Shown: positions 17 to 17,018 of the stretch, piece by piece | Position numbering within the stretch: the first letter of the stretch is position 1 | How the letters are laid out: the number at the start of each line of letters is the position of its first letter | Source: an uncultured bacterium | GTDB taxonomy: Bacteria; Auribacterota; JAFGBW01 | Assembly: GCA_964443875.1 (NCBI GenBank) | Contig: CAYUET010000001.1 | Location: forward strand, 134,992-198,991 | Direction of reading: 5' to 3' | Length of the DNA stretch: 64,000 nt | Made by a program: the position numbers and the translations under genes | The notes under the pieces: generated by a model | The model's input: the letters and a program-made list of their open reading frames with translations, nothing else | The model's database searches: none | Told to the model about the DNA's origin: nothing

Positions 17-1996
17 TTGGCTGAAATGGAAGAGCTGAAAACACTTGAAGTGCAATTTTCCAAAACATCCAGTGACCTTGAAGAGACCAAATCCAAACTC
101 TCAATTCTTGAACTGGAAATCCGCACGGCAAGGGAGATCGAAGAAAAAAGAAAACAGAAAGTTGAAGAACTCATTTTAAAGGGAAAAGATGCTCTCGACG
201 GCAAGCGCTTGGAGGAAGCTCTGGATCATTATCTTCATGTCCTGGAAGAGGATCATAAAAATCCGCGAGCCATTCATTATGTTCAGGAAATTAAAACACT
301 GTTAAAAGAACAGGACGCTGAGACAAAGCGAAGAGAGGAAGATGCCCGGAAGATTGCCCAGGAAGCACGCAAGTGTTTTGAAATGGGGAAAAAATACTAC
401 CGGGAGAATAATTTTGAAAAAGCACTGGAAAGCGTCAACACCGCTCTTTCCATCGGTGGAAAAAATTCAGAATTTCTGGATTATAAGGAAAAATGTGAAT
501 TAAGAATTCATGAGATTGAGGAAAATCTCAATCGGGCCAAAAGAGAAATTGAGGAGAAAAAACGTCTTGTTTCTGAATACCAGCTCACGGCGAATACTCA
601 TTTCCGAAAAAAGGAATACGATTCCGGCATACTGCTTCTCGAAAAAGCCCTTTATCTGATCCCGGATAATAAAGAAGTTCAGGAATCCCTCAGACAGGCT
701 GAAAATAAATACAAGGAATTTCTGCAGGTTCAGGAAAAAGACGTCCAGCTGAAAAAACAGAAGCAGGAACAGCTGCGAGAGCTTGAAGTCAAGGCTCTGG
801 AGATGGTCCGGAATGAGGATTATGAGAATGCGATTAAATGCATAGAGCAGGGATTGAAAATATGTCCGGAAAGGGATGACTTCGCATTGTTTTTAAAAGA
901 ACTTAATGAGAAATATCTTACTCACAAAAAATTCTGCGAGGAAAAAGAAGAGAAACAGAATAAGGCAAAACAGGAACGGCAGAATCTTTTAAAGGAATAT
1001 TATGCAAAGGCTCTTCAGGCGTTCATGGTTTGTGACCTCGATCTTGCAGCCAATTATTTCGGAAATGTCATGGTTCTGGATCCTCATTATGAACAGGTTG
1101 AGACTTACCTTCAGAAAATTTCTGATTTGAAAAAAAATATTGAAGCGGAGAAAAAAGAAGCCGAGTTAAAAGCTTTTGAAAAACAGGAGGCCCTTGAAAA
1201 AATCAGAGAGGAAGAAAAAAACAGGAAGAATCAGGAGCTGGTAGAGCTTTTTTCTTCCGCTCTTAAATTAGCAAGTGAAGAAAATTATGAAGGCGCCTTA
1301 ACCCGCTTTGAAAAATGTTATGCCCTTGATCCCTTCAATGAAACCTTCAGGAAAGAAGTTGAAAACACCCGGAAATTCCTCAATGAAAAACGTGTCAGGG
1401 AAAGGCTGGAAAAAGCCAGAGAGGAGGAAAGACGGGAGGAGGAGAAATCCAGGCAGCTTAAAATTCAATTTCATCTGGAGCAGGCGGAAAGCTATTTGAA
1501 TAACAATCACGCCTTGAAGGCAAAAGAGGAATGGGATAAAATTCTTTCTTTGGATTCCTGTAATCAAAAAGCCAGGGACGGCCTGCTTAAATGTGAAAAT
1601 TTTCTCCTTGCAGAAGAACAGAAATGCCTCAGAGAGGAGCAGCTCAAAAAAGAAATCGTCTCCAGAATTGAAAAGATAAACTTTGAAGCCAAATTGCTTC
1701 TTAAAGAGGATAAGTTTTATGAAGCCATTAATCTTTATGAATCAGCCCTGAACCTGGATTCCGGAAATAATGATGCTAAAAACGGAATCCTGGAATGTAA
1801 ACAGTTTCTGTTAAACAAAAACACCTGCGATGAATTAAAAAGCAATGTGGAAAGACTTTTACAGGCTCAGGTCAACCGTCTTGATGAATTGAAACAGACT
1901 ATTTCTGAGGGAGCAAAATTTTATCAGGAAAAGGATTATTCAAAAGCTTTGGGAATCTGGAACAGTATTACTCATCAGCTAAAAAAACAGGATTAA
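17..1996 (+). CDS. Lys/Glu-rich coiled-coil TPR-repeat protein. The reading frame is open back to the window edge, so the true start may lie upstream.
   Basis: 659-aa ORF. Recurring A-x-x-Y-x-x-A-L-x-L-D-P TPR-like motifs (ALDHYLHVLEED, NAIKCIEQGLKICPE, ALTRFEKCYALDPF) alternate with long K/E-rich coiled-coil stretches. No stop codon between position 2 and 17 in this frame. The stop lies 4 nt before the next start. Confidence 0.6.
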   Translation: MAEMEELKTLEVQFSKTSSDLEETKSKLSILELEIRTAREIEEKRKQKVEELILKGKDALDGKRLEEALDHYLHVLEEDHKNPRAIHYVQEIKTLLKEQDAETKRREEDARKIAQEARKCFEMGKKYYRENNFEKALESVNTALSIGGKNSEFLDYKEKCELRIHEIEENLNRAKREIEEKKRLVSEYQLTANTHFRKKEYDSGILLLEKALYLIPDNKEVQESLRQAENKYKEFLQVQEKDVQLKKQKQEQLRELEVKALEMVRNEDYENAIKCIEQGLKICPERDDFALFLKELNEKYLTHKKFCEEKEEKQNKAKQERQNLLKEYYAKALQAFMVCDLDLAANYFGNVMVLDPHYEQVETYLQKISDLKKNIEAEKKEAELKAFEKQEALEKIREEEKNRKNQELVELFSSALKLASEENYEGALTRFEKCYALDPFNETFRKEVENTRKFLNEKRVRERLEKAREEERREEEKSRQLKIQFHLEQAESYLNNNHALKAKEEWDKILSLDSCNQKARDGLLKCENFLLAEEQKCLREEQLKKEIVSRIEKINFEAKLLLKEDKFYEAINLYESALNLDSGNNDAKNGILECKQFLLNKNTCDELKSNVERLLQAQVNRLDELKQTISEGAKFYQEKDYSKALGIWNSITHQLKKQD

Positions 1997-2000
1997 TTCC

Positions 2001-4163
2001 ATGCCAGAGGGCGAAAGCAATAAAAATCAAAAGGGCGGGGAAAGCAGGAATCTGGATTCTCTTAAAAATGTCAATCTGGATGCCATTTCTTCCTCTTTAA
2101 ATGAAGCCTCTGCAGAAATAAATGAAAAGCAGAAAGAACTTGACGGACTTGAGGAGCAGAAAAAAAAGGTTCTTGAAAAGCTGAATCAGAAAATTTCCCT
2201 AATCAAAAAGCAGACCGATGATGCTTTTCAGAAAATGAAAAATTTTTCCTGGGACGAGGCTCTCTTATGCTGGAATAAAGTTCTTGAAATTGATCCTGAA
2301 AATGAAGAGGCAAAGAAAGGATTGACCGAGTGTCAGGCTCAAAAAGAAGCCGCCCCGAAAACACCTGTTGCCGCAACCTCTTCTCCCGGAACCTTGAACC
2401 AGGAGGATCTGGATAAGCTTCTTTCGGAAGGCCGGGCGGCTTCCGGAATCGGCGGGGTTATGAGCCAGGAGGAGCTGGATAAATTACTTTTTTCCGGAGG
2501 ATTAACCCCTTCTTCAGAGCCTGCAAAAGAGGCCCCTGTTTCTCCGTCTGAAGAAAAGCCTTCTGAGACTTTAAGCCAGGAAGAACTGGATAAACTGATT
2601 TTCGGAGACAATCCTCCTCCTAAAACTGATAGTGGAAAACTTACTGTGGATAAGGGAAAGGAGCCTTCTTCTTTGACTCCGGAAGCTCATGCGGATAAAC
2701 CTATGTCGCAGGATGAACTGGATGCCATGCTGAACAATTTTTCCAAAGAAGGCATTCCTGAGATTTATTCACAATCGGGGAAGGAAACGAAAAACGAAGG
2801 TAGTAAAAAAGAACCTCAGGAACCTGAGATGCTTTCTCAAAACCAGATTGATGCCCTTCTGGGGATTGCAACACCCGCAAGCGAACCTTCTGCTGATTTA
2901 AGTGGCGAGATGATGACTCAGGAGGAACTGGATAAATTTTTAAATCCTTCTCCGGCCGCTGTTCCGGCCAAGGAAACAGTTTCACCGCAGACAAAAGAGC
3001 CTCCCTCTGAACCTCCTAAGGCAGAACAATCGACACCAGCAGAGGTCTGGAAGCTAAATACAAACGATGCGGATCTCTTTCAGTTAGGCTCGGCATTAAG
3101 TTCTCTGGCGTATATCGTGCCGATTAAAAATATCGTTGAGGATCCTTTATCCGAGCTTCATCCGCCTGAAAACATTCATTATGCGGAAGTGATGGATGAC
3201 TCAAAAAATATCGATGAAGTATTTAAGGAAATGGCTACAAGCACCGGTCTTGATTTGAACGAGGTTTCTAAAATGGGGGATACCATTGCCGCAAATGTGT
3301 CTCAGGAAATGAAATCCATTCCCTTAGAAATGACTACGGAAGGGGCTGAATCTCCGGTTTCTGAAAGTGTTGCTCTTGCCGCCAGAAAAACAAAGCCCGG
3401 CTTGACTGAAATACTGTCCGATGTCAAGATGGTGAAGGATTCCGGGGGTTCTCTGAAATTTTTCTATGTCTTAAAATGGCTTGTTGTTGTTTTAGGATTC
3501 GGTTTTGTCTGCACGCTGACTTCCACATTGATTTTATATTCAAGATTAACGGATTCTGTCCGGGGAAAACCAGTGATAAAAACAGAGGTATCTTCCGATG
3601 CAATAATAGAAGCTATCCTGACAGAAGGTAATAAATATTTAGAGGAAGGGGAGTATCAAAAGGCCTGGGATATTCTTTTTTCCATCTCTGATCAGTACCC
3701 CTCAACGTCTAGTATGATTAATAATTTTTATAAAGCTGCAGATTTGTTTAATGATAAATGTAAAAATAGAGAAGATCTGGTTCAGGAGGATTATCTTAAA
3801 ATTTCCCGTTTGTATGAACAGATTGTCGATCAGTTTCAGGGTAGTAATAAAACAGAAAGAGCAAGTTACCTTGCGGCTGAAAATTATTATATGGCAGGTA
3901 TTTATCATAAATCTTATGAAATGTATTTTAGAATTGTATCTAGAAATCCTGAATCGGATTATTATCAGTCTGCTTTGCTGCAATGTGCAAAAATATTACT
4001 CATTGAGAATAAATTTAAAGAAGCCAGAGATGCTTATCTTAAGGTGGTTCAGGAGTTTCCAGATACAGCTGCCGCAAGGATGTCCCAGCTGGATATCGCC
4101 AAAACCTATCAGCTTGAAGCCTTGAATATTAAAAATCAGTTTCATTTTTCAGAAAAACGCTAA
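2001..4163 (+). CDS. Membrane-anchored protein with six tandem FliM/FliY-type CheY-P docking-like motifs, one TM helix and a C-terminal TPR-like domain
   Basis: Motif copies: aa 132-141 LNQEDLDKLL, 154-163 MSQEELDKLL, 191-200 LSQEELDKLI, 235-244 MSQDELDAML, 278-287 LSQNQIDALL, 305-314 MTQEELDKFL. They are separated by P/S/E/K-rich low-complexity linkers. A hydrophobic helix lies at about aa 488-513 (FFYVLKWLVVVLGFGFVCTLTSTLILY). The C-terminal ~200 aa are TPR-like (YQKAWDILFSISDQYP, YLAAENYYMAGIYHKSYEMYFRIVSRNPES, ARDAYLKVVQEFPD). Confidence 0.7.
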   Translation: MPEGESNKNQKGGESRNLDSLKNVNLDAISSSLNEASAEINEKQKELDGLEEQKKKVLEKLNQKISLIKKQTDDAFQKMKNFSWDEALLCWNKVLEIDPENEEAKKGLTECQAQKEAAPKTPVAATSSPGTLNQEDLDKLLSEGRAASGIGGVMSQEELDKLLFSGGLTPSSEPAKEAPVSPSEEKPSETLSQEELDKLIFGDNPPPKTDSGKLTVDKGKEPSSLTPEAHADKPMSQDELDAMLNNFSKEGIPEIYSQSGKETKNEGSKKEPQEPEMLSQNQIDALLGIATPASEPSADLSGEMMTQEELDKFLNPSPAAVPAKETVSPQTKEPPSEPPKAEQSTPAEVWKLNTNDADLFQLGSALSSLAYIVPIKNIVEDPLSELHPPENIHYAEVMDDSKNIDEVFKEMATSTGLDLNEVSKMGDTIAANVSQEMKSIPLEMTTEGAESPVSESVALAARKTKPGLTEILSDVKMVKDSGGSLKFFYVLKWLVVVLGFGFVCTLTSTLILYSRLTDSVRGKPVIKTEVSSDAIIEAILTEGNKYLEEGEYQKAWDILFSISDQYPSTSSMINNFYKAADLFNDKCKNREDLVQEDYLKISRLYEQIVDQFQGSNKTERASYLAAENYYMAGIYHKSYEMYFRIVSRNPESDYYQSALLQCAKILLIENKFKEARDAYLKVVQEFPDTAAARMSQLDIAKTYQLEALNIKNQFHFSEKR
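2394..2942 (+). repeat. In-frame array of six ~30-nt coding repeats (consensus CAGGAGGAACTGGATAAACTGCTT, encoding SQEELDKLL) spaced 60-130 nt apart
   Basis: Direct reading of the nucleotide and protein sequence. Copies begin at about 2394, 2460, 2571, 2703, 2832 and 2913. Confidence 0.85.
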
Positions 4164-4177
4164 CATTTCATTCGAAT

Positions 4178-4193
4178 TGGAATAAGATTTGCA
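4178..4193 (+). promoter_or_regulatory. Candidate sigma-54 (-24/-12) promoter TGGAATAAGATTTGCA, 49 nt upstream of the TPR lipoprotein start
   Basis: Matches the GG-N10-GC spacing of the TGGCACG-N4-TTGCA consensus: T1 G2 G3 A5 T12 T13 G14 C15 A16 conserved. A sigma-54 activator is encoded 4.4 kb downstream. Confidence 0.45.
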
Positions 4194-4241: not shown

Positions 4242-6815
4242 ATGAAAATAGTTCGTCTTACAATTATCACTCTTTTATGTTTTATGTTTTCCTGCGGAAG
4301 TCTTTTTTCTTTTCAAATTTTTAAACCTAAAGCTAAAAATGCCAATGAACAGAAACAGCCCAAGAAAAAACTTTTTGGAGACTCCAAAAAGGTTAAATAC
4401 AAAAATATTCTGAAAGAAGCGGAAAAAGCCTATAATAACCAGGAATATGAGACGGCGCTAACTCTTTATCGCAAAGTATTGGTGATAAAACCTAAAAATG
4501 AACTGGCTATCCAAAGAATCAATGAGATCAATAAATGGACGGCATTGCTTGATAAAAAATTAAAGGCCAAGGATAAAAAATATAAATCAAGAATTAAAAA
4601 AATTAAATCCATTTCGTCAAAAAAAACAGTGGAAGCCAAAAAACTCGGTCAGCAGAAAATAAAATTGGAACAGAATATTGCCCTTGAAAAAAAGAAGCAA
4701 AAGCACTGGATGTCGGCTGCAACTTATTCCAATATGCTTTATGAGGCGGCTCTGTCACTTTCTCAGAAGGATTTCAAAAAAGCCCATTCTCTTACCACTA
4801 AAATCCTTATGGCAAGGCCCGATTCCATTGAAGCCAGGGATCTTTTGCATCGCATTTCAAATGCCGAGGATGAGTGGTATGAAATTCAAAAATTAAAGAC
4901 TGCTTTGGAGGATACCCAGAAAAAGTTAATCGAAGAAGCAAAAAAAAAGGCTGAAGAGAAAGCGATAGAAAAAAAAGAAGAGGAAAGGAAAAAACAAATA
5001 AAAGAGTCATCTCCTGAAAAAAAAGGGGAGACTCCTCCTGTTCTCGATAGCGAGGATATGATTGCTAAAAAAATCAAATCAGCCCTTGATGAAATTGTCG
5101 GCGGACGTTTTACTGCAGCCGATTTTATCACGGATACCCATAAACTTAAAGAAGTTGAGATGGATTTTTTAAATGAACAGTCTGTGGTCATTTACCAGAA
5201 GTCCGTCCAGGAATACGAAAAGGATGAAAAGGCGGGGAATTTGCTGAATTATAACATCAGGGATCTTAAAAATTACAAAAAAAGAATTTCTGAAGCGTAT
5301 TATTGGATAGGGAAATATTACGCAGGAAAAAACAAGACAAAAGAGGCGATTCAAAATTTTAAAATCCTTCAGGAAAAATTCAAGGATTCTGATTATCTTC
5401 ACTCTTCTTTGTATGCACTTGGGATTATTTATTTAAACAGCAATGAGTTAAAAACAGCGTTGAAATATTTTGAGGGAGTTGTGGATATCCCCAAGATCCT
5501 GGATAACACTGAAAGCTTGTCACAGGCTCAGGTTCTGCAGGAGGAGCATGAAAAAACAGTTCTGAATTCCTATCAGAAAATCGGACAGATTTATCACAGG
5601 CTTAAAAATTATGCTCTGGCCGTTGAAACCTACAGAAGTATTTCCGACAAATATCCTGAAAATGCATCGCTTCAGCTGGAAGGCGAAATTCTTACCGGCG
5701 AAACTTATTTGGATCAGGCCTTATATGAAAAGGCCCTGGAATTATATACGGAGGTTCTGGATAAGGCGACAGATCCCCGGCAGATTGAAAGGGCTCAATA
5801 CAACAGGGCGGCGGCTTTTCTCGGGCTTTCAAAATTTGAGCTGGCAAGAACGGATCTTCAAAGTATTATTACAGAAAACCCTCTCAACACCCTTCAATCC
5901 GATGCCGCCTATCTTCTGGCGGAAAGTTTTTTTATTCAGAACAATTTTCCAAAAGCCATTATTTTTTTCAACAAAGCACTGAATGAATACCCGGATTCCG
6001 ATAAAAAATTCCGTGCAAAAATTCTTCTCGCCAAATCCTATTCAAAATCAACGCTTTTTGAAAAAGCCATACCTTTGTTTGAAGACATTATTGACCGCCG
6101 GATCAAGGAATGGACTCCGGATGCCTTTTGCGAACTGGGTGAGATTTATCTTCAACAGCTGAAATATTCCGACTCCAGAAATGCCTTTTCCGAGCTGATT
6201 ACTTCTTTCCCTGACCATGTGCTGACGAAAAAAGCCAGGTTTCTGGTGGGGGATACTTTTTTTTCCGAGAAAAAATATTCTCCGGCTGAAAAACAGTACA
6301 GAACAGCGTTAAGGTCGGATTCGCTGACTCTGGAGGGGCATATCGCAAAATACAGAATTTCCTTTTGTCTGAAAGAATTAAAGAAAGACGAGCTTTATGA
6401 AAAATATACCGGAGATCTTTTAACTCTTGATGATTATTCCAGAAAAATCTGGGACCAGGATAAGAATCCCCAGAGGGCGGAGTTTAAAAAATATTATTAT
6501 AAGCTTCTGTTTGATTATGGCTGCTGGACTATGGAAAAGAAAAAATACAACAAGGCTGAAAAAATACTTAAAAGGGTGGTTTCGGAATTTTCAGAAGGTG
6601 AGGATTCCCACCAGGCGGATTATCTTATCGGAAAAATATACGAACTTAAAAACTTGAAACAGAAAGCACTGGAACATTACGGGACTGTTTCCAGCTATCA
6701 GGACTTCTGGGGCGAGCAGGCAGGATTTCAATTAAAAAAACTGGAATGGGAAAAAAAATATCAGAACCAGGCTGAAGAATTGAAAGGAATGACCTCTGAA
6801 TCCAAATCAAATTAA
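4242..6815 (+). CDS. Large TPR-repeat lipoprotein or secreted protein with a Lys-rich coiled-coil N-terminal region
   Basis: 857 aa. N-terminus MKIVRLTIITLLCFMFSCGS looks like a signal peptide with a lipobox-like F-S-C. Numerous TPR-like repeats run through the C-terminal 600 aa (YEKALELYTEVL, AAYLLAESFFIQNNFPKAIIFFNKALNEYPDS, AFCELGEIYLQQLKYSDSRNAFSELITSFPD). Confidence 0.65.
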   Translation: MKIVRLTIITLLCFMFSCGSLFSFQIFKPKAKNANEQKQPKKKLFGDSKKVKYKNILKEAEKAYNNQEYETALTLYRKVLVIKPKNELAIQRINEINKWTALLDKKLKAKDKKYKSRIKKIKSISSKKTVEAKKLGQQKIKLEQNIALEKKKQKHWMSAATYSNMLYEAALSLSQKDFKKAHSLTTKILMARPDSIEARDLLHRISNAEDEWYEIQKLKTALEDTQKKLIEEAKKKAEEKAIEKKEEERKKQIKESSPEKKGETPPVLDSEDMIAKKIKSALDEIVGGRFTAADFITDTHKLKEVEMDFLNEQSVVIYQKSVQEYEKDEKAGNLLNYNIRDLKNYKKRISEAYYWIGKYYAGKNKTKEAIQNFKILQEKFKDSDYLHSSLYALGIIYLNSNELKTALKYFEGVVDIPKILDNTESLSQAQVLQEEHEKTVLNSYQKIGQIYHRLKNYALAVETYRSISDKYPENASLQLEGEILTGETYLDQALYEKALELYTEVLDKATDPRQIERAQYNRAAAFLGLSKFELARTDLQSIITENPLNTLQSDAAYLLAESFFIQNNFPKAIIFFNKALNEYPDSDKKFRAKILLAKSYSKSTLFEKAIPLFEDIIDRRIKEWTPDAFCELGEIYLQQLKYSDSRNAFSELITSFPDHVLTKKARFLVGDTFFSEKKYSPAEKQYRTALRSDSLTLEGHIAKYRISFCLKELKKDELYEKYTGDLLTLDDYSRKIWDQDKNPQRAEFKKYYYKLLFDYGCWTMEKKKYNKAEKILKRVVSEFSEGEDSHQADYLIGKIYELKNLKQKALEHYGTVSSYQDFWGEQAGFQLKKLEWEKKYQNQAEELKGMTSESKSN

Positions 6816-7248: not shown

Positions 7249-8598
7249 ATGCATACCCCCGAGGTTCAAAATTCAGGAAAGAAACGCTTCATGAAAAAAT
7301 TTTTTGAAACACCGGAACAGAATTTAAATCAAACGATACAGAAAGCATTTGAAGAGTTTAATGAAAAAAGTCAGAAACTGACCAATGCCTATAATGATCT
7401 GAAAAAAGAAGTGGCCAGGGTTAATCTCGAGCTGGAAAATAAAAACAGGGAACTCGAAAATAAAAACAGGGAACTGGACCGGGCAAAAGTTTTTCTCGAC
7501 AGTGTGTTTCAGGGCATGATCAACGGCATTATGGTTTTGGATAAAGAGGCGAAAATCATCAAGGTCAATGAGTCGCTTTTAAAACTGATCAAAAAAGAAG
7601 AAACGGATCTTCTGTGCAGAAATATTCATGAAATTAATGAATTAAAACCTTTTTTGCGATTTTTTGAATCTTCCAAACATTCGGATTCTAAAACCATCTA
7701 CAGCGCATGCCGTTTGACCATTGAAAACGAGGTTTTATGGCTGGAACTTTCAGGATCCGGTGTCGGAGAGGATTTTATTCTTGTGGTTCATAATTTGACC
7801 GAAGTCAGGGATTTAAGAAAACAGCTTGTCCAGAATGCTTCCATGGCAGGTCTGGGCGAAATGGCGGTTACCGTTGCACATGAAATCCGCAACCCGCTGG
7901 GGGGGATTGAAGGTTTTGCCTCTCTTTTGAAAAGGGATCTGGCCGATAATCCCAAACATCTTCAGCTTCTTGAGAAAATCATCAGCGGGGTCAGGCATCT
8001 GAACCAGTTTATCGGCGGATTATTGACATTTTCAAAGCCTATTCCCATTCATCCCCGTGCTGTTGATCTGAATTTGGCAATCCACAAAGCGATTCATTAT
8101 TCAGGAAAAAATGAAGAATTGGATAAATATCCACAGGTTTCAATCCTCACCCAGACAGACGAAGAAATTCATCTTTCAACAGACCCGGATCTCATTCAGC
8201 AGTTACTGATTAATCTTTTACTCAATGCTTTTCAGATTATGAACAATGAAGGTACTGTAAAAATTTTTCTTAAATCCGTAGAGCATCTTGGGGATTATAA
8301 AGATACTACCGCATTAAAAACCATAAAAAGTCTTAATTATGATCCTCTCAAAAAGGGGATTTTAATTTCTGTATCCGACTCAGGTCCGGGAATAACGCCG
8401 GAAATAGGTAAAAAATTATTTTCGCCTTTTTTTACGACAAAAGCGTTTGGAACAGGGATAGGTCTTTCAATGGTTCATAAAATTGTTGATACCCTTGAAG
8501 GAAAAATTGATACTTATTCAAAAAGTGAATTAGGAGGAGCGGAATTCAGAATTCTGCTGCCGGAGCTTGCGATGATTGAACCTCAAAAACAGGATTAG
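7249..8598 (+). CDS. Soluble PAS-domain sensor histidine kinase, FlgS/FlrB/FleS-like by context
   Basis: No TM segments. PAS-like segment (LDSVFQGMINGIMVLDKEAKIIKVNESL). H-box HEIRNPLGGIEGFASLL. HATPase_c G-boxes (DSGPGITPEIGKKLFSPFFTTK, GTGIGLSMVHKIV). Sits immediately upstream of the sigma-54 response regulator and the flagellar rod genes. Confidence 0.8.
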   Translation: MHTPEVQNSGKKRFMKKFFETPEQNLNQTIQKAFEEFNEKSQKLTNAYNDLKKEVARVNLELENKNRELENKNRELDRAKVFLDSVFQGMINGIMVLDKEAKIIKVNESLLKLIKKEETDLLCRNIHEINELKPFLRFFESSKHSDSKTIYSACRLTIENEVLWLELSGSGVGEDFILVVHNLTEVRDLRKQLVQNASMAGLGEMAVTVAHEIRNPLGGIEGFASLLKRDLADNPKHLQLLEKIISGVRHLNQFIGGLLTFSKPIPIHPRAVDLNLAIHKAIHYSGKNEELDKYPQVSILTQTDEEIHLSTDPDLIQQLLINLLLNAFQIMNNEGTVKIFLKSVEHLGDYKDTTALKTIKSLNYDPLKKGILISVSDSGPGITPEIGKKLFSPFFTTKAFGTGIGLSMVHKIVDTLEGKIDTYSKSELGGAEFRILLPELAMIEPQKQD

Positions 8599-8601
8599 AA
8601 A

Positions 8602-9963
8602 ATGACTATTAGAAAAGTACTGGTTGTGGATGATGAACCTCTGATGAGGGATTTTGTCGGTGAAACCCTTCTTCGAATGGGTTGTGAAGTCAAGTTTGCC
8701 TCGGAGGGACTTGCGGCGATAAGATTGCTTGAAAATGAAAATTTTGATCTTGTTTTCAGTGATATGAAGCTTCCGAAATTATCCGGGCTTGAAGTGCTGA
8801 AAAGCACAAAAGAATTAAGCCCAAAAACAGAAGTTGTCATTATGACAGCATATGGAACCATTGAAACAGCCATAGACGCCATGAAATCCGGCGCATCGGA
8901 TTATCTTTTAAAGCCTTTTACACCTGAACAGGTGGAGCTAGTAGTGGATAAAATTTCATCCAGCGTTTCTCTGAAGGCGGAAAATGAGTATCTTCGCCGG
9001 GAAGTGAATGAAAATTACGGTTTTGGAGAAATCATAGGTCAGTCAGAGCCTCTTCAGGATATTTACAACCTAATCAAAAAAGTTGCAGAGTCCAAAGCCA
9101 GTGTTTTGATAAGCGGAGAGACCGGGACAGGTAAGGAGCTTATTGCAAGGGCCATTCATTACAACAGCGACAGAAAAAATAAACCTTTTATCAAGTTTAA
9201 TTGCGCAGCTTTACCTGAAAATCTTATTGAAAGCGAGCTTTTCGGACATGAAAAGGGCGCTTTTACAGGCGCAAATATCTTAAGGCAGGGAAGGTTTGAG
9301 CTTGCTGACGGAGGAACCATTTTTTTGGATGAAATATCTGAAATTGATATTTCTCTTCAGCCGAAATTGTTAAGGGTACTTCAGGAAAGGGAGTTTGAAC
9401 GGGTCGGATCAGCCAGAAGCATAAAGGTGGATGTAAGAATTTTAGCCAGCACAAACCGCGATTTAAAGGCGGAAATTGAAAAAGGAACTTTCAGGGAAGA
9501 TCTGTATTATCGTCTGAATGTTGTTCCTGTTCATCTGCCTCCCCTGAGGGAAAGAAAAGGGGATGTCCTTCTTTTGTCTGAAAAGTTTTTAAAACGTTTT
9601 TCCCAGGAAAACAAAAAACAGGCAAAATCCTTTACGAAAGAGGCTCTGGATCTTTTAGAAAAATATCCCTGGCCCGGGAATGTTCGCGAGTTGGAAAATG
9701 TTATTGAAAGAGCTGTTGTTATGGATCGAAGCAATGTTATTGAACCTAAGGATTTGGGGATATCTCTTGAAGCTTCGGATTCTTTTATGCATCAGGCTAA
9801 AACAGATAAGCCTACCGGACAGACTTTGGCTGAGATGGAAAAAGATCTTATCGTAAGCACTCTGGATCACTACCAGGGGAACAGGACAAAAACAGCGGAT
9901 GTGTTAGGCATAAGTATCCGGACTTTAAGGAATAAACTACATGAATACCATCTCATGTCCTAG
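8602..9963 (+). CDS. NtrC-family sigma-54-dependent response regulator (REC + AAA+ + Fis-type HTH), FlgR/FlrC/FleR-like flagellar activator by context
   Basis: REC domain (VLVVDDEPLMRDF...D54-like FSDMKLP). AAA+ Walker A GETGTGKE. The GAFTGA sigma-54 contact loop is present (EKGAFTGA). C-terminal HTH (TADVLGISIRTLRNKL). Confidence 0.85.
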   Translation: MTIRKVLVVDDEPLMRDFVGETLLRMGCEVKFASEGLAAIRLLENENFDLVFSDMKLPKLSGLEVLKSTKELSPKTEVVIMTAYGTIETAIDAMKSGASDYLLKPFTPEQVELVVDKISSSVSLKAENEYLRREVNENYGFGEIIGQSEPLQDIYNLIKKVAESKASVLISGETGTGKELIARAIHYNSDRKNKPFIKFNCAALPENLIESELFGHEKGAFTGANILRQGRFELADGGTIFLDEISEIDISLQPKLLRVLQEREFERVGSARSIKVDVRILASTNRDLKAEIEKGTFREDLYYRLNVVPVHLPPLRERKGDVLLLSEKFLKRFSQENKKQAKSFTKEALDLLEKYPWPGNVRELENVIERAVVMDRSNVIEPKDLGISLEASDSFMHQAKTDKPTGQTLAEMEKDLIVSTLDHYQGNRTKTADVLGISIRTLRNKLHEYHLMS

Positions 9964-10134: not shown

Positions 10135-10512
10135 GTGATTCTGAACAGTTTATTTAATAACAAAATAAATACCATACTTAAAAAGGTGATGGATTGCAAT
10201 GTGCAGAAGCATGCGGTTATTACCAATAATATTGCCAATATTGAGACCCCGGGTTTTACTGCAAAACGTTTTGAATTTGAAGAGGCTCTGCAAAATGCTG
10301 TTCATACTGGAAACATAGACATCATTCAAAATGCATCCGGTGAAGTGGTTAATAATTATGATAATCCTTACCGCATGGATATGAATAATGTCGATATTGA
10401 AAAAGAACTTCTTTCAATGGAAGAAAACCGTATGCAGTATGAAACAATCGGAACGCTTTTAAAGAAAAAATTGCTGAAATGGAATAAAATAATTGAGGGA
10501 GTAAAAGGCTAA
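10135..10512 (+). CDS. flgB: Flagellar basal-body rod protein FlgB
   Basis: 125 aa, GTG start. Conserved rod N-terminal motif (VITNNIANIETPGFTAKRFEFEE). Position as the first gene of the flgBC-fliE operon. Confidence 0.8.
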   Translation: MILNSLFNNKINTILKKVMDCNVQKHAVITNNIANIETPGFTAKRFEFEEALQNAVHTGNIDIIQNASGEVVNNYDNPYRMDMNNVDIEKELLSMEENRMQYETIGTLLKKKLLKWNKIIEGVKG

Positions 10513-10940
10513 TGTCCATGTTTGATTCCATAAAGATAAGTGCTTCTGCTTTAAGTGCTGAACGTGTAAGAATGAATGTGATTGCCAATAACCTGGCAAA
10601 CATCAATACCACAAAAGGTCCGGACGGAGAGCCTTATAAGAGAAAATACGTTGTTTTTGAAACATTGTTAAATAATTCTTTGACCGATTCCGATGAGATA
10701 AGAGAGAATGGAGTTGCGATTTCTGATATTGCTGAAGATCAGAGACCTTTCAGGAGGGTTTATAAGCCAGGACATCCTGATGCAGACAAAGACGGATACC
10801 TGTCTCTTCCCAACATTGATATGGTTGAAGAAAATGTGGATTTACTGGCATCTTCAAGAGCTTATGATGCCAACTTGAGTGCCATGAAGGCTTCCAAATC
10901 CATGCTGCGAAAAATGATTGAACTTTTATCCATGGAATAA
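10512..10940 (+). CDS. flgC: Flagellar basal-body rod protein FlgC
   Basis: 142 aa. MSMFDSIKISASALSAERVRMNVIANNLANINTT N-terminus and LASSRAYDANLSAMKASKSMLRKMIELL C-terminus are typical FlgC. Confidence 0.85.
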   Translation: MSMFDSIKISASALSAERVRMNVIANNLANINTTKGPDGEPYKRKYVVFETLLNNSLTDSDEIRENGVAISDIAEDQRPFRRVYKPGHPDADKDGYLSLPNIDMVEENVDLLASSRAYDANLSAMKASKSMLRKMIELLSME

Positions 10941-10955
10941 CAGGAGTACTAACGG

Positions 10956-11282
10956 ATGAGTGAGATTGACCCTGCTAACATTTCAAAGATTGATATCTCA
11001 AAAATTTATGAGAATCAGAAAAAGAATATGCTTGAAGGAAACCGGGAAACCAATTCCACGGGTTTCAAAGATATTCTCGGGGGTTTTATGAATGATGTCA
11101 ATGAGCTTCAGATCAAAGCTGATGATAAACTTGAAAAATTGGCAACAGGGGAAATCAAGGACTTGCATGAGGTTATGATTGCAGCTACCGAAGCCGACAC
11201 TTCTTTTAAAATCATGATGGAAATAAGAAGTAAATTGATGAGTGCTTACAAGGAAATCTCGAAAATGGGTGGAGGAGCCTAA
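10956..11282 (+). CDS. fliE: Flagellar hook-basal body protein FliE
   Basis: 108 aa. FKDILGGFMNDVNELQ...KLATGEIKDLHEVMIAATEADTSFKIMMEIRSKL matches the FliE family pattern. Confidence 0.8.
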   Translation: MSEIDPANISKIDISKIYENQKKNMLEGNRETNSTGFKDILGGFMNDVNELQIKADDKLEKLATGEIKDLHEVMIAATEADTSFKIMMEIRSKLMSAYKEISKMGGGA

Positions 11283-11347
11283 GATATCCGATATAATTTA
11301 ATGTAATTTTTTAATATAAAGTTCCAGCTTGATGAAATGGGGGAGGT

Positions 11348-13006
11348 ATGGAATTTTTTCAGAAACTAAAAAGTCAGATCACTGATTTTCTTAAAGTTGT
11401 TGATCCGGGAACCAAATTATTAGCCTTTATGATGATAGGCGTTTTGTTTATTTCTGTTATCATTGCGGTTTTTATGAACAGGACACCCGACTTTACATTG
11501 CTTTTCAGCAATATCACTGAATCAACAGCCGCTGATATTGTCAAAACTCTTGATGATAACAATGTTGAGTATGAATTAAAAAACAACGGCAAAAATATTT
11601 ATGTCAAAAAAGACAAAGCTAACCGAGTCAGGCTTCTTTTAAAAGCAAAAGGGCTGCCTAAAGACGGAGACAGGGTTGGTTTTGAAATTTTTGATAAAAC
11701 AAATCTAGGGGTTACAGATTTTGTTCAGAATGTTCAGCATCATCGTGCACTTGCCGGAGAGCTTGAAAGAACAATAAGCGGGATTAGGGGGGTTGAAGGA
11801 GTAAGGGTTCATATCGTTATTCCTGAAGAAAAACTGTTTGAGAAGGAAAAGACCTCCGCCTCCGCCACCATTATGCTTACCCTCCATCATGAGGGCGCTC
11901 TTGATGCTTCTCAGATTGATGGTATACGTCAGCTCACCTCTTCTTCCATAGAAGGGATGAAGCCTAAAAATGTGACTGTGGTGGATAATTTTGGAAATGT
12001 ACTGGCTTCCGTCGAAGACAGCAGTGATGAAGGACTGTCCGGAATTTCTTCCCGAATGGCCCTTCAAAAAAGCGTTGAATCCTATTACATTAAAAAGGTT
12101 CAAACCCTTTTAGATTCCGTTTTAGGAGGCAGTAATTCCGTTGTCCGGATCGATGCGCTTCTTGATTTTGATAAAATTGAAGAAACTGAAGAAAAATATG
12201 ATCCTGAATCTGCAGTGGTGAGAACTGAAACAATTACCTCAGAAAAAGCTTCAGGTGCAACGAGTTCTGCAAAAGGCCCTCCCGGAGTCCAGAGCAACAT
12301 GTCTCCAGCCAATAAATCGGGGGGAGGTTCTTCTCAGGAAAACCAGACAAGCCGTGAAGTATTGAACAATAAATATGAGATCAATAAAAAAGTCAGTCAT
12401 ATCATTAAAAGTATCGGAGATGTTAAAAAACTTACGGTTTCCGTTTTTCTGAAACAAAAAGCTAAAACCGATAAGAATGGCGATCCGGTGATAGGGGAAG
12501 ATGGAAAAGTTATTTTTGAACCCCGACCCCCCGAAGAAATCAAAAATTTCAATGAAATTGTTAATAACGCCATCGGTTTTGATGAAAAACGCGGGGATAA
12601 GGTCGTCATAAAAGAAGTTCCTTTTGATAAAAAGGGGGATGAAGCGTTCTTTAAAAAGGAAAGTTTTGTTTCAAGAGATATCCATTCGGCAATCGCTCCG
12701 GGTCTTAAATTTATTCTATTATTCGGATTGATTTTTTTATTTTTGACTCTTCTTAAAAAACGTCTTAATCATGAAGGATATTCCTCCGTCCAGACAAAAC
12801 ATATTCATGAAAGCGGCAGAGGGGCAACAGGGAATAAAATGGCTCAGATTGCTGAAGTTTATGATGCCGGAGAACTATCGGTCATCAAAGAAAAAGGACT
12901 TAAAGCTGTAGAAAAGGGCGCTTTTGTTGAAAGTGAAATTTCAAAACTTGTTGAGAACTTTCCTACTGAAACAGAACTTGTATTAAAGAACTGGCTTAAG
13001 GATTAA
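11348..13006 (+). CDS. fliF: Flagellar MS-ring protein FliF
   Basis: 552 aa. N-terminal TM helix (LLAFMMIGVLFISVIIAVFM) and a second TM near aa 450 (FILLFGLIFLFLTLL). Internal YscJ/FliF-like region. Sits between fliE and fliG. Confidence 0.8.
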   Translation: MEFFQKLKSQITDFLKVVDPGTKLLAFMMIGVLFISVIIAVFMNRTPDFTLLFSNITESTAADIVKTLDDNNVEYELKNNGKNIYVKKDKANRVRLLLKAKGLPKDGDRVGFEIFDKTNLGVTDFVQNVQHHRALAGELERTISGIRGVEGVRVHIVIPEEKLFEKEKTSASATIMLTLHHEGALDASQIDGIRQLTSSSIEGMKPKNVTVVDNFGNVLASVEDSSDEGLSGISSRMALQKSVESYYIKKVQTLLDSVLGGSNSVVRIDALLDFDKIEETEEKYDPESAVVRTETITSEKASGATSSAKGPPGVQSNMSPANKSGGGSSQENQTSREVLNNKYEINKKVSHIIKSIGDVKKLTVSVFLKQKAKTDKNGDPVIGEDGKVIFEPRPPEEIKNFNEIVNNAIGFDEKRGDKVVIKEVPFDKKGDEAFFKKESFVSRDIHSAIAPGLKFILLFGLIFLFLTLLKKRLNHEGYSSVQTKHIHESGRGATGNKMAQIAEVYDAGELSVIKEKGLKAVEKGAFVESEISKLVENFPTETELVLKNWLKD

Positions 13007-13008
13007 AT

Positions 13009-14025
13009 ATGGAACTATCCGATTTAACCCCCAGACAAAAAGCGGCTATTTTTGTGTTGGCGATAGGAAAGGAAAAAGCCGCAAAGATTTTTAAAAATCT
13101 GGAAGACCATGAAATCGATAAACTTACTCTTGCCATTACCGATATCAGTCTGATTGAGCCTAAAGTAAAGGAAGAGGTGCTGAAGGAATTTTTTCAAATT
13201 GTGGTTGCTACCCGAGGAGGGGTGGTAGGGGGAGATTCAACGGCAAAGGAATTTCTTGAAAACAGCCTTGGACGAAATGAGGCCAGCGATTACCTTACCC
13301 GTTTGAATCTCGGAAAAAAAGGGGAATCCGATATCTATAACATTTTAAAATCCGTGGATACGGCACAGTTAGCCAACTTTCTTCACTCTGAACAGCCTCA
13401 AACCATAGCTCTCGTTGTTTCTCATCTGGAACCGGCAAAAGCCGCCCAGGTTTTAGGTAGTCTGACCACGGAAGAACAAACCCAGGTCATGATGAGGATT
13501 GCAACCATGTCAGAGACTTCCCCTGAAATCGTATCCAAAGTTGCCTCGGTTGTCAAAAGGCAGCTTTCAGCCTCCATTGGACAGCAGTTGAAATCCGCAG
13601 GCGGTGTGAAATCTGTTGCTGAAATTTTAAACTTTGTAGACCGGGCCACTGAAAAAAGTATTGTCACTTCCATGGAGGAAAAGAATAAAGAGCTGGCGGA
13701 TGAAGTGAAAAAACTCATGTTTGTATTTGAAGATCTTACGCTGATTGAAGACCGTTCCATGCAGCGTGTATTAAAGGAAATTGATACTTCAGAACTCTCC
13801 CTTGCCCTTAAATCTGCAAAAGAGGAAGTTAAAACTAAAATTTTTAATAATATTTCCAAACGGGCGGCGGAGTTGATCAAGGAGGAAATCGAGTACATGG
13901 GGCCTGTTCGCCTGAAAGATGTCGAGGATGCCCAGCAGCGCATTGTCAATGTTGTACGCAGGCTTGAAGAAGAGGGTGAAATCGTCATTGCTGGCAGGGG
14001 CGGAGCCGGAGAAAAATTTGTGTAA
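13009..14025 (+). CDS. fliG: Flagellar motor switch protein FliG
   Basis: 338 aa. Typical FliG segments (LTPRQKAAIFVLAIGKEKAAKIFKNL, MFVFEDLTLIEDRSMQRVLKEIDTSELSLALK, RAAELIKEEIEYMGPVRLKDVEDAQQRIVNVVRRLEEEGEI). Confidence 0.85.
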   Translation: MELSDLTPRQKAAIFVLAIGKEKAAKIFKNLEDHEIDKLTLAITDISLIEPKVKEEVLKEFFQIVVATRGGVVGGDSTAKEFLENSLGRNEASDYLTRLNLGKKGESDIYNILKSVDTAQLANFLHSEQPQTIALVVSHLEPAKAAQVLGSLTTEEQTQVMMRIATMSETSPEIVSKVASVVKRQLSASIGQQLKSAGGVKSVAEILNFVDRATEKSIVTSMEEKNKELADEVKKLMFVFEDLTLIEDRSMQRVLKEIDTSELSLALKSAKEEVKTKIFNNISKRAAELIKEEIEYMGPVRLKDVEDAQQRIVNVVRRLEEEGEIVIAGRGGAGEKFV

Positions 14026-14028
14026 AAT

Positions 14029-14625
14029 ATGACTACTCTTCATTTAAAAATTAAGGAAGCTGTTGTTCGCAAGGAAAAAATTCCTATTGATATCCCCCGT
14101 CTCTTACAGGAAGAAGCCCTTCAAAAATATATTGAGGAAAGAGAAAGAAAAGCATTTGAAAAAGGTTTTGCTGAAGGAAGCAAAAAGGGGGCCCAGAAAA
14201 GAAATGAAGAAGTAACCCCTCTGATCAAGGCGCTTGAGGAAATTCTTGAAAAATTTAAATCCACTAAAGAAGATATCGCCAGCCAGGCGGGAAAAGAAGC
14301 TCTTCAGCTTGCTCAGACTGCTTTCAGAAAATTAAACGGGGAGTACAATGAAACCTTTAACCCCAAAATCATTGATATCATTCAGCCTGTTTTACAGAAA
14401 ATTCCGAATGCCACCCGGTTGATCATAAAATTGAATCCCCAGGACTTTAAAATTTTCTCAGAATTTAAAGATAACCTGATAAAAATCGGCCAGCTTGCGG
14501 ATTGTGAAATTGTTCAGGATTCCCAAATTACCAAAGGGGGGTGTTTCATTGAAACAGATATCGGCATGATTGATGCCACTCTTGAAACACGGGTGGAAAA
14601 AATCAGTGATTCTTTCAAGGAATGA
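14029..14625 (+). CDS. fliH: Flagellar assembly protein FliH
   Basis: 198 aa. Position between fliG and fliI, with its stop overlapping the fliI start. Charged coiled-coil N-terminus typical of FliH. Confidence 0.6.
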   Translation: MTTLHLKIKEAVVRKEKIPIDIPRLLQEEALQKYIEERERKAFEKGFAEGSKKGAQKRNEEVTPLIKALEEILEKFKSTKEDIASQAGKEALQLAQTAFRKLNGEYNETFNPKIIDIIQPVLQKIPNATRLIIKLNPQDFKIFSEFKDNLIKIGQLADCEIVQDSQITKGGCFIETDIGMIDATLETRVEKISDSFKE

Positions 14626-15953
14626 CCGGAATGACCGCCATGATTGATTTTACATCCTACAGAAAGAAAATTGAAAAGACAAATCCCTGTCAGTTGCTCG
14701 GCAGAATTCTCCATATCAACGGAATGCTGATGGAATCAAGCGGCCCTCCGGGAGCGATAGGGGATTTATGCACCATTATTGATCCTCAGACACAGGAACC
14801 TCATCTTGCGGAAATTATCGGTTTTAAACAGGATAAGTATTATCTGATGACTTATGGGGGTGAAATGACCGGAATTGCTCCGGGCACTCCCGTATACTCC
14901 ACAGGGGAATCCTTGCAGATCCCGGTCGGAGAATCCCTGAAGGGCAGGATTATCAACGGAATAGGACAGCCGATTGACGGCAGGGGAGACATTCTTGCTG
15001 AAAAATATCTTCCCTTATTGCGTCCAGCTCCCGACGCCTTGAAACGGAAAAGAATCGATACGCCCTTTCATGTGGGGATAAGGGCTATTGACGGCTGTCT
15101 CCCCATTGGGCTAGGTCAGCGCGTTGGAATTTTTTCTGGTTCCGGTGTTGGAAAATCCACCCTTCTGGGAATGATGGCCAGAGGCTCGGATGCAGAGATC
15201 AACGTTATCTGCCTTTTGGGAGAAAGAGGAAGGGAAGTCCGGGAATTTATTGAAAAGGATCTGGGCGAAGAAGGTATGAAAAAATCCGTGGTGATTGTGG
15301 TTACCTCTGACCAGCCTGCTCTCATGAAAATAAAAGGGGCGTATGTGGCAACAACCATTGCGGAATATTTCAGGGATAAAGGAAAACTTGTTTTATTTAC
15401 CATGGATTCTCTTACCCGTTTTGCCATGGCCCAAAGAGAGGTCGGGCTTTCTCTTGGAGAACCCCCCACAACAAAAGGCTACACCCCGAGTGTTTTTGCC
15501 CTGCTTCCCAAACTTCTGGAACGGACAGGAATGGGGGAAAATGGGGCTATTACCGCTTTTTACACGATTCTTGTTGATGCGGATGACTTTAATGAACCGA
15601 TTTCCGATTCCTCTCGTGCGATTTTAGACGGACATATTGTCCTGAGCCGCCGTATCGCCTCCATGAATCATTATCCTTCGATTGACGTTCTTGAAAGCGT
15701 TTCCCGTCTTGCGGATGCGGTTGCCAGTGACGAGCAGATGTTCATGCTTCGTAAAATAAAGGAATTGATGGCTGTCTACGAAGAGGCCAGGGATCTGATT
15801 AATATCGGGGCTTATGCCAAAGGGGCTAATCCCAAAATAGATGAAGCCATTTCAAAAATTGATGCCATTAACCAGTTTTTAAGGCAGAATATGTATGAGC
15901 AGACTTCTTTTGAAACAGTCATGGAAACAATGAAAAAGATTACCTCCAAATGA
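14622..15953 (+). CDS. fliI: Flagellum-specific ATP synthase FliI
   Basis: 443 aa. Walker A GSGVGKSTLLGMMAR. F1/T3SS ATPase-like sequence throughout. Overlaps fliH by 4 nt. Confidence 0.9.
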   Translation: MTGMTAMIDFTSYRKKIEKTNPCQLLGRILHINGMLMESSGPPGAIGDLCTIIDPQTQEPHLAEIIGFKQDKYYLMTYGGEMTGIAPGTPVYSTGESLQIPVGESLKGRIINGIGQPIDGRGDILAEKYLPLLRPAPDALKRKRIDTPFHVGIRAIDGCLPIGLGQRVGIFSGSGVGKSTLLGMMARGSDAEINVICLLGERGREVREFIEKDLGEEGMKKSVVIVVTSDQPALMKIKGAYVATTIAEYFRDKGKLVLFTMDSLTRFAMAQREVGLSLGEPPTTKGYTPSVFALLPKLLERTGMGENGAITAFYTILVDADDFNEPISDSSRAILDGHIVLSRRIASMNHYPSIDVLESVSRLADAVASDEQMFMLRKIKELMAVYEEARDLINIGAYAKGANPKIDEAISKIDAINQFLRQNMYEQTSFETVMETMKKITSK

Positions 15954-16396
15954 AAAAATTCAAATTCAAACTCAAGGCGGTTTTAAGGGAGCGGGAAATC
16001 CGTGAAGATGAGAAAAAAAGGGATTTCGGTGTTGCCATGGGAAAACTTCAGAAGGAAAAAGATATTTTGTCCGGATATCAGCAAAATAAGGAAGACTCTT
16101 TTGATTTTTTAAAACTTCACAAACAACAGGAGTTTCCGAATATCGGAACACTCCGTTTATATGAAACGTATCTGCTTCATCTGAATAAAAAAATCAATCT
16201 TCAATGTGCAACCATTCTGCAGGCCGCCTCCAATGTATCTGCAGCCCGACAGAGACTGCTCGAAGCGACCCGGAGGAAAAAGATACTTGAAACTCTGAAG
16301 GATCATCAGAAACAAAGATATTATCTGGAAGCTGAGAAACAGGATTTAAAAGAAATGGATGAATATAATGTTTTAAAGGCGGTACATCATGAATAA
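15950..16396 (+). CDS. fliJ: Flagellar export protein FliJ
   Basis: 148 aa coiled-coil. N-terminus KFKFKLKAVLREREIREDEKKRDFGVA resembles FliJ family starts. Follows fliI with a 4-nt overlap. Confidence 0.65.
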   Translation: MKKFKFKLKAVLREREIREDEKKRDFGVAMGKLQKEKDILSGYQQNKEDSFDFLKLHKQQEFPNIGTLRLYETYLLHLNKKINLQCATILQAASNVSAARQRLLEATRRKKILETLKDHQKQRYYLEAEKQDLKEMDEYNVLKAVHHE

Positions 16397-17018
16397 TATC
16401 CTTAAACTTCTGGGAATTGCTGCTGCTGTTGTTATAATTATTCTTCTTATTGTTATCTTTACTGTACCTTCGTTAAAAAAGACTGTATTCGGTTCACCGG
16501 AAGAAGAAGCCCTGAAAACTAAAGAAGAGACTGCTGTAAAAGCTTCAATTCCAGTTATTAAAGATACTTATATTCCCAATAAGGAAGTTTTAGAGCTGGC
16601 TGAAACGCTAAAACAAAGGGAAGTTAAATTAAAAGAAAATGAAGAGCGTGTTCAGCGTCAGATGGTTTTAATGGAAAAAGAAAAACAGGAACTTGTCAAA
16701 ATAAGAAATGAAATACAGACTTTGCATCAGACCATTGCAGCCAATATCACTAAAAACGTTGAGTATTACATTCCTTTGATAAAAGAGGCTGAAAAGAAAA
16801 ATCTTAAGAAAATGGCTAAAATGTTTGAAACACTTTCTCCTGAAAACGCCAATCCCATTATGGCTCGTATGCCGGATCAGACCCTGGTGATTGTCCTGTC
16901 TTTTATGAAACCCCGAAATTCAGCGAAATTGCTGGCAGGGTACGCGGCCTACAACGCGGATAGTCCCAGAAGGGCGGCTGAACTTACTGAAAAACTCAGA
17001 AATCTGGTCATCCAATAA
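16389..17018 (+). CDS. MotE/YlxF-like flagellar protein (N-terminal TM, coiled coil, MgtE_N-like C-terminal domain)
   Basis: 209 aa. TM LLGIAAAVVIIILLIVIF. C-terminal block (MAKMFETLSPENANPIMARMPDQTLVIVLSFMKPRNSAKLLAGY) resembles the MgtE_N fold found in MotE/YlxF proteins that follow fliJ in Bacillus-type fla operons. Confidence 0.45.
   Translation: MNNILKLLGIAAAVVIIILLIVIFTVPSLKKTVFGSPEEEALKTKEETAVKASIPVIKDTYIPNKEVLELAETLKQREVKLKENEERVQRQMVLMEKEKQELVKIRNEIQTLHQTIAANITKNVEYYIPLIKEAEKKNLKKMAKMFETLSPENANPIMARMPDQTLVIVLSFMKPRNSAKLLAGYAAYNADSPRRAAELTEKLRNLVIQ

Follow-up and report, generated by a model that had tools for sequence, protein, structure and literature searches.

The 64-kb stretch of DNA analysed here (hereafter the window; positions 134,992 to 198,991 of contig CAYUET010000001.1, from an uncultured Auribacterota bacterium) encodes, close to its first position, a 720-amino-acid (aa) protein that is predicted to span the membrane once and carries six copies of a short peptide resembling the N-terminal docking motif of the flagellar switch protein FliM (FliM_N). 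We propose, with about even confidence, that this protein (hereafter the target) is a membrane-anchored multivalent docking platform for phosphorylated CheY (CheY-P) near the flagellar base. The proposal rests on sequence comparison and structure prediction, from which we infer each of its components, namely that the topology is N-in, that the client is CheY-P, that the protein sits at the motor and that it has a physiological effect. The coordinates of all features are listed in Table 1.

The repetition itself was clear. A search of the target with the pattern [LM][SNT]Q[EDN][EDQ][LI]D[KA][LMF][LI] found six copies between aa 132 and 314, whereas 20,000 shuffles of the same protein gave a mean of 0.0011 copies and a maximum of 2; the six copies claimed in the initial annotation are thus far beyond chance expectation. 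All six fit the LSQ-x-E-[IL]-D-x-L-L class, with conserved Q and D and hydrophobic residues at positions 1, 6, 9 and 10. The codons differ from copy to copy, and Tandem Repeats Finder detected no DNA repeat in the gene. These two results rule out a recent tandem duplication of DNA as the origin of the repeats and indicate that the repetition is held at the peptide level.

The alpha4-beta5-alpha5 face of phosphorylated CheY is the docking site of a short helical motif present in FliM and FliY and, in related form, in CheZ. A hidden Markov model (HMM) built solely from the six 30-aa units of the target was scored against a control set of 3,640 open reading frames (ORFs), each 100 aa or longer, taken from the window and from 87 loci, together with the Salmonella FliM N-terminus, SILSQAEIDALLNG, read directly in PDB 8umd. 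With array proteins set aside, the Salmonella FliM_N scored highest (13.7 bits), followed by the FliM N-terminus of locus L040 (11.7 bits), which is the one FliM gene present in the fetched loci; the next ORF reached 6.0 bits. Since the only two FliM N-termini in the control set ranked on top, the motif is specifically FliM_N-like. The ranking supports the predicted membership of the repeated peptide in the FliM_N/FliY_N docking-motif class, in agreement with the likeness pointed out in the initial annotation. Pfam and NCBIfam searches with the whole target gave no FliM, CheZ or FliY match, as is understandable from the little weight that these models place on the 10-residue peptide. Comparison of the repeat region with PDB chains by sequence returned noise only, from a library without peptides shorter than 20 aa.

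The motifs are also conserved selectively. Searches of 5.8 and 1.84 billion proteins recovered a family of only four members, consisting of the window protein, P0002 (71% identical to it), P0003 (69%) and P0108 (about 37%–40%). The initial annotation had raised the question of whether the repeat number differs among homologues, and it does: six copies are present in the window protein and in P0002, five in P0003 (copy 1 decayed) and three in P0108 (copies 4–6 kept). Between the window protein and its orthologue in contig L002, the motif residues were 87% identical and the linkers 47%. The ratio of amino-acid to synonymous changes was 8:16 in motif codons and 84:30 in linker codons (Fisher p = 2.7e-4). 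The motifs are thus selectively conserved on diverging disordered linkers. A profile scan of genome contigs with the orthologue alignment revealed no relative, and the one match in metagenome contigs, an archaeal coiled-coil protein encoded next to RFC genes, was rejected as a false positive. When the 203-aa array region alone was used as a query, no match was obtained at E ≤ 0.001, not even to its parent protein, which the full-length query finds; low-complexity or bias handling probably suppresses such array-region queries.

The motif array extends well beyond this small family. When searched against 1.84 billion representative proteins, the six-copy profile recovered 287 multi-copy proteins at E ≤ 0.001, of which 62 reached E ≤ 1e-10; a single protein contained up to 25 matched stretches. 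Among the best 149 of the 287 matches, 91 had at least three strict copies. The consensus of 520 copies was [LIVM]-S-Q-[DE]-[DE]-[IL]-D-[AK]-L-L, with Q3 present in 99% and D7 in 85%. Most of the matched proteins had no Pfam domain. The domains found alongside the arrays (FliMN_C in 7, CheC in 6, CheX in 6, FliM in 3 and FliL in 2) show an enrichment of CheY-P-binding and flagellar families; about nine TPR proteins also carried arrays, and one array copy in P0016 matched positions 186–202 of the 203-position Pfam CheZ model, corresponding to the C-terminal CheY-binding peptide. P0057, from Vulcanimicrobiota, is a true FliM bearing five copies at its N-terminus; P0099 and P0111 are FliY proteins with four N-terminal and three internal copies, respectively; the standalone CheC/CheX proteins P0088 and P0130 carry four or five copies at the C-terminus; and P0092 is a CheC protein with three N-terminal copies. 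In these six proteins, tandem FliM_N-motif arrays replace the single classical copy. The presence of the same arrays on FliM, on FliY and, most tellingly, on standalone CheC/CheX proteins (by annotation, chemotaxis phosphatases with CheY-P as substrate), is the strongest argument for CheY-P as the client of the target.

An array followed by one membrane helix and a C-terminal domain was the layout of 36 of the 91 clusters. The C-terminal domain is FliL in P0035 and P0094, and a TPR domain weakly similar to that of the target in P0009, P0024 and P0079. The initial annotation knew of no described protein with this arrangement. Indeed, no description of tandem FliM_N arrays was found in the full-text literature searched, which returned papers on the single FliM_N peptide and on FlhG; the arrangement itself is, however, not unique to the target, given at least 91 array clusters and 36 with the same layout. 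The motif is therefore known; what appears to be undescribed in that literature is its occurrence in multiple copies, both on membrane proteins outside the switch and on FliM, FliY and CheC.

Eight genomic contexts of array proteins were examined, and six of these were flagellar. Downstream of P0009 (L085), which has 10 copies, a transmembrane (TM) helix and a TPR domain, lie genes for a small protein, a homologous PAS kinase and a sigma-54 regulator that shares 53% identity with its counterpart in the window. P0024 (L088, Hydrogenedentota), with the same order of array, TM helix and TPR domain, likewise precedes genes for a small protein and a kinase of this type, but no response regulator is encoded there. 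P0035 (L086, 4714–6411; eight copies, TM helix and FliL) and P0053 (L090, 9001–11406; 14 copies) share a slot after flhA-flhF-flhG-fliA and before a 99-aa gene, a DUF6115/DUF2802 gene and fliK, constituting a second conserved flagellar context. P0004 (L001, 7944–12226; 13 copies) and P0005 (L089, 6932–12003; 25 matched stretches) are very acidic array proteins, both preceded by an MGMT-like gene and a gene for an MptE-like (Maf-type) protein of ~690 aa. No flagellar neighbours were found around P0038 (L087) or around P0108 (L083), the distant orthologue of the target.

These data bear on the possibility that the repeats are generic acidic amphipathic helices within a linker, serving as a spacer or for self-association or condensate formation with no specific client, and that their likeness to FliM_N is convergent. 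The LRR, ankyrin, EF-hand or protein kinase domains in some of the profile matches, the lack of any Pfam domain in most, and the non-flagellar surroundings in L087 and L083 could be explained in this way. Such a linker would not be expected to retain Q3 and D7 so strictly, to place FliM N-termini first in the profile ranking, to recur on FliM, FliY and CheC themselves, or to lie so often in a flagellar context. We therefore consider a generic linker highly improbable.

The layout of the target is consistent with a cytoplasmic array tethered to the envelope. The AlphaFold2 (AF2) model, built from the four orthologue sequences, placed helices at aa 26–80, 84–97 and 102–117 with a predicted local distance difference test (pLDDT) score of about 80–86, and TPR_2/TPR_19 matches were found at aa 82–115 in Pfam/NCBIfam. 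This N-terminal helix/TPR unit (2001–2351) resembles the repeated units of the protein encoded directly upstream (17–1996), and a tblastn search linked it to the partner gene in L083 (E 6e-4), which hints at a shared origin or hetero-oligomerisation of the two. The following region (aa 119–345) is rich in E (13%), S (12%) and P (12%), and its pLDDT stayed below 50 except at six short helices that coincide exactly with the six motifs, although the low depth of the model makes this coincidence indicative only. The middle region (aa 346–470) matched no family in Pfam/NCBIfam, and its helices at 356–370, 404–413 and 419–437 were modelled with low confidence. Beyond the TM helix, the C-terminus matched the YbgF family TIGR02795 (55.6 bits, under the cut-off of 90.1), TPR_14 and TPR_21. 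Foldseek superposed this domain (AF2 532–713) on the YbgF TPR structure 2xev with a TM-score of 0.87 and a root-mean-square deviation of 2.1 Å; BamD also superposes. The description of disordered P/S/E-rich linkers followed by a TM helix and a TPR-like domain in the initial annotation thus agrees with composition, AF2, hydropathy and family matches alike.

YbgF and BamD are periplasmic families. The target has no signal peptide, and 485 residues precede its sole membrane helix; an N-in, C-out topology is thus a reasonable inference for this predicted protein. The array relatives ending in FliL point in the same direction, since the N-terminus of FliL is cytoplasmic and arrays lying N-terminal of the membrane helix should therefore be cytoplasmic as well.

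In the proposed mechanism, the periplasmic YbgF-like TPR domain would anchor a bitopic inner-membrane protein to the envelope, and the site is probably the flagellar basal body or its vicinity. The cytoplasmic part of roughly 485 residues would present six FliM_N-type docking helices on flexible P/S/E-rich linkers. Multivalent capture by this array could concentrate, buffer or sequester CheY-P close to the membrane and motor, and might thereby tune switching; a sink, a tether and a localiser would look alike at the sequence level. More tentatively, and at somewhat less than even confidence, the proteins combining an array, a TM helix and a periplasmic domain such as TPR or FliL (the target and at least 36 others) could represent an undescribed class of flagellum-proximal multivalent CheY-P traps. 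Such traps might raise or buffer the local CheY-P concentration around the C-ring or compete with FliM, forming a tunable layer between the chemoreceptor array and the motor, with copy number (3 to >10) as an evolutionary dial.

Accounts of how CheY-P arrives at the flagellar switch and stays there usually invoke one FliM_N tether on each FliM subunit. Should arrays on membrane proteins outside the C-ring bind CheY-P, they would represent a novel means of shaping signal concentration near the motor, along with its gain and adaptation; with FlhG as the client, they would instead be a novel means of positioning or counting flagella. The array class occurs widely in uncultured phyla, Hydrogenedentota and Vulcanimicrobiota among them, and the FliM, FliY and CheC variants with 3–5 copies are natural experiments on valency.

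Several observations weigh against a CheY-P docking platform. Position 8 of the motif is K in four of the six copies of the target, compared with A in classical FliM. The positive-inside rule is ambiguous, with 2 versus 4 K/R within the 15 residues flanking the membrane helix on either side, and the AF2 model had a mean pLDDT of 51.5, that is, low overall confidence from four sequences. No cheY, fliM or fliN was found among the ORFs scanned in the window, as the initial annotation had stated. Moreover, the orthologue in L083 keeps the upstream partner gene in a neighbourhood without flagellar genes.

Two further points against CheY-P favour FlhG, the MinD-like ATPase controlling flagellar number and placement, which is the main rival client. 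FlhG binds the same N-terminal EIDAL motif, on FliM in polar flagellates and on FliY in Bacillus (PMC12826062), and both P0035 and P0053 are encoded directly after flhF-flhG-fliA. The array might accordingly recruit or sequester FlhG instead of CheY-P, acting as a membrane landmark or an assembly-control buffer, and the position of the target gene, beside early flagellar genes and a sigma-54 regulatory pair and not beside chemotaxis genes, would suit this role. Conversely, standalone CheC/CheX-type proteins, whose annotation is CheY-P phosphatase and which are not known to meet FlhG, bear arrays too, and no flhG was present among the scanned ORFs of the window. The motif itself cannot discriminate between FlhG and CheY-P. 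On balance, we regard FlhG as an unlikely client, and CheY-P remains the one that we favour.

The genomic contexts raise a third possible client. A module consisting of a TPR envelope protein, a FlgN-like small protein, a PAS kinase and a sigma-54 regulator is present in the window (4242–9963), in L007 (3658–8787) and in L085, and in L088 without the regulator. It recurs across distant lineages with a TPR protein that may or may not bear a motif array, and no array is present in L007. In the window, the module lies directly upstream of flgB, while the gene after the regulator in L085 does not encode FlgB. The module may be a FlgS/FlgR-like flagellar checkpoint with an envelope input. In the contig of the L002 orthologue, the cluster extends further upstream (1996–7850), with genes for a LysM protein, a 429-aa REC protein carrying an uncharacterised C-terminal part, a STAS protein and a 1135-aa TPR protein, followed by the 701-aa TPR protein and the target. 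The first four of these genes are not visible in the window, which begins inside the next one.

The array could thus dock a receiver protein of the cluster, either the 429-aa REC protein or the FlgR-like sigma-54 regulator, and scaffold a flagellar two-component checkpoint instead of serving chemotaxis signalling. In addition to the composition of the L002 cluster, this scenario would account for the recurrence, both in the window lineage and in contigs of the Hydrogenedentota type, of an array-TM-TPR protein together with a small protein and a PAS kinase, for the sigma-54 regulator after the kinase in the window and L085 (not in L088), and for a REC-HD-GYP gene that follows P0004. It is weakened by the complete module without any array in L007 and by the cluster REC proteins themselves. 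These (the 429-aa protein of L002 and that encoded at 21475–22113 in the window) are not especially CheY-like, their best PDB matches being OmpR/Spo0F-type receivers. We also know of no precedent for FliM_N-type peptides binding NtrC-type receivers. A receiver of the cluster is therefore a distinctly improbable client, less plausible than FlhG.

Several known systems resemble the target in part. As in FliM_N (EIDAL) and the FliY N-terminus, its peptide is a 10-residue LSQxE[IL]DxLL in which Q and D are invariant and positions 1, 6, 9 and 10 are hydrophobic, and it forms a short helix in disorder. In classical FliM and FliY, which are C-ring proteins, a single copy occupies the extreme N-terminus, whereas the target has six internal copies on a membrane protein without a FliM, CheC or FliN domain. 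No FliM middle, CheC-like or FliMN_C (SpoA) domain was detected in it at E ≤ 0.1 in Pfam and NCBIfam, while the controls P0057 and P0099 matched; a switch (C-ring) protein was therefore rejected as its identity. The C-terminal peptide of CheZ is similarly a docking peptide on a flexible linker that recruits CheY-P, but it occurs once per chain and is joined to a phosphatase, whereas the target has no catalytic domain and no CheZ match.

Among membrane-anchored proteins, HubP/FimV resembles the target in its long acidic repeat-rich cytoplasmic region and TPR-like elements, and this region recruits flagellar and chemotaxis ATPases (PMC12826062, PMC8789113). HubP/FimV, however, carries a periplasmic LysM domain at its N-terminus, and its parts are arranged in reverse. 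Given this reversed order and no LysM or FimV match, the target was not assigned to HubP/FimV; a separate LysM protein is encoded upstream in L002. To our knowledge, the repeats of HubP/FimV are not FliM_N-like. ZomB/MotV is likewise a membrane-anchored non-core protein with TPR/MIT-like helical repeats, and it affects flagellar direction switching via FliM and FliG (PMC8789113). Compared by description, it differs from the target in that its helical repeats are cytoplasmic and no docking-motif array is present. Campylobacter PflA/PflB, the spirochaete collar protein FlcA and YbgF/CpoB share with the target a membrane helix or lipid anchor, a periplasmic TPR domain and an association with flagellar genes. 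We know of none of these that carries a large cytoplasmic docking array. No collar or Pfl match to the target was found in NCBIfam, and the likeness to PflB/FlcA rests on their descriptions. YbgF/CpoB itself was rejected on the sub-threshold family score given above, the similarity being confined to the fold of the TPR domain. FliL was also rejected, since PF03748 is absent from the target and present in the array relatives P0035 and P0094.

The target ORF starts with ATG, the first start codon following an in-frame stop. The TAA of the upstream gene lies at 1994–1996, leaving a gap of 4 nucleotides (nt) as noted in the initial annotation, and an AGGA is located 8 nt upstream of the ATG; translational coupling of the two genes is therefore plausible. 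The upstream coiled-coil/TPR gene, whose 5' end is probably outside the window because its orthologue is 701 aa long, lies next to the target orthologue in all three other contigs (directly upstream of it in L002 and L083), and its product is likely a cytoplasmic partner of the target. The downstream TPR lipoprotein, a possible periplasmic partner, is kept beside the target in L002 and L084. As its first gene, the target opens a co-directional flagellar cluster that continues with this lipoprotein, the FlgN-like, PAS kinase and sigma-54 regulator genes, flgB to fliJ and an FlbB-like gene, which agrees with the flagellar neighbourhood described in the initial annotation.

Table 1. Positions in the window of the target gene, its parts and the neighbouring genes, with the evidence for each.
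Feature	Position	Strand	Evidence
Target ORF, 720 aa; predicted bitopic membrane protein with six-copy FliM_N-like motif array	2001..4163	+	ORF call, motif search, hydropathy, AF2
N-terminal long helix and TPR-like hairpin, aa 26-117	2076..2351	+	AF2; TPR_2/TPR_19 matches; 81% identity to L002
Disordered P/S/E-rich region with six motifs, aa 119-345	2355..3035	+	Composition, pLDDT, linker identity
Motif copy 1, LNQEDLDKLL, aa 132-141	2394..2423	+	Pattern; AF2 helix 135-141; lost in orthologue P0003/L084
Motif copy 2, MSQEELDKLL, aa 154-163	2460..2489	+	Pattern; AF2 helix 156-163
Motif copy 3, LSQEELDKLI, aa 191-200	2571..2600	+	Pattern; AF2 helix 193-200
Motif copy 4, MSQDELDAML, aa 235-244	2703..2732	+	Pattern; AF2 helix 237-245; kept in distant orthologue L083
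Motif copy 5, LSQNQIDALL, aa 278-287	2832..2861	+	Pattern; AF2 helix 280-286; kept in L083
Motif copy 6, MTQEELDKFL, aa 305-314	2913..2942	+	Pattern; AF2 helix 307-314; kept in L083
Conserved middle region, no assigned fold, aa 346-470	3036..3410	+	70% identical to L002; weak match in P0108
Single transmembrane helix, aa ~486-513	3456..3539	+	Hydropathy peak 2.35; AF2 helix 487-518
C-terminal YbgF/BamD-like TPR domain, aa ~530-713, probably periplasmic	3588..4139	+	TIGR02795, TPR_14, TPR_21, Foldseek
Upstream coiled-coil/TPR protein	17..1996	+	TPR matches; orthologue in L002 84% and in L083 48% identical
Downstream TPR protein, 857 aa, lipoprotein-type signal peptide	4242..6815	+	N-terminus MKIVRLTIITLLCFMFSCGS; TPR and YbgF matches
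Small FlgN-like helical protein, 132 aa	6823..7221	+	Weak FlgN match, E 0.022; homologue upstream of kinase in L007
Cytoplasmic PAS histidine kinase and sigma-54 response regulator, FlgS/FlgR-like pair	7249..9963	+	Family matches
flgB, flgC, fliE, fliF, fliG, fliH, fliI, fliJ, FlbB-like gene	10135..17018	+	Family matches

No FliF in 185,579 species genomes shared more than 38% identity with the FliF encoded in the window; uncultured metagenome-assembled genomes, Candidatus Auribacter and Aerophobetes gave the best matches. The organism thus belongs to a deep lineage that is poorly sampled. The FliF-based scan gave 80 loci, none of which had a multi-motif protein within 10 kb of fliF; the target gene is thus not a general neighbour of fliF. 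The 209-aa gene after fliJ (16389–17018) encodes one N-terminal membrane helix and weakly matched collar_FlbB (25.7 bits against a cut-off of 110), and its homologues come after fliJ in L003, L004 and L005 as well. FlbB is a collar protein of the spirochaete periplasmic flagellum.

Elsewhere in the window, a gene for a PBP1C-type penicillin-binding protein adjoins that for a 1797-aa bacterial alpha-2-macroglobulin (27567–35194, minus strand), the known periplasmic defence pairing. Two eukaryotic-type Ser/Thr protein kinases are encoded on the plus strand (23188–24171 and 41534–44089), the second of which (851 aa) has a long N-terminal region without a family match. Rfam identified two tRNAs only and no rRNA in the window. 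A type II secretion system/type IV pilus platform protein (T2SSF; 54317–55549, minus strand) and a protein with a prepilin-type N-methylation motif (59053–59667, plus strand) suggest that the organism probably also makes a pilus or pseudopilus.

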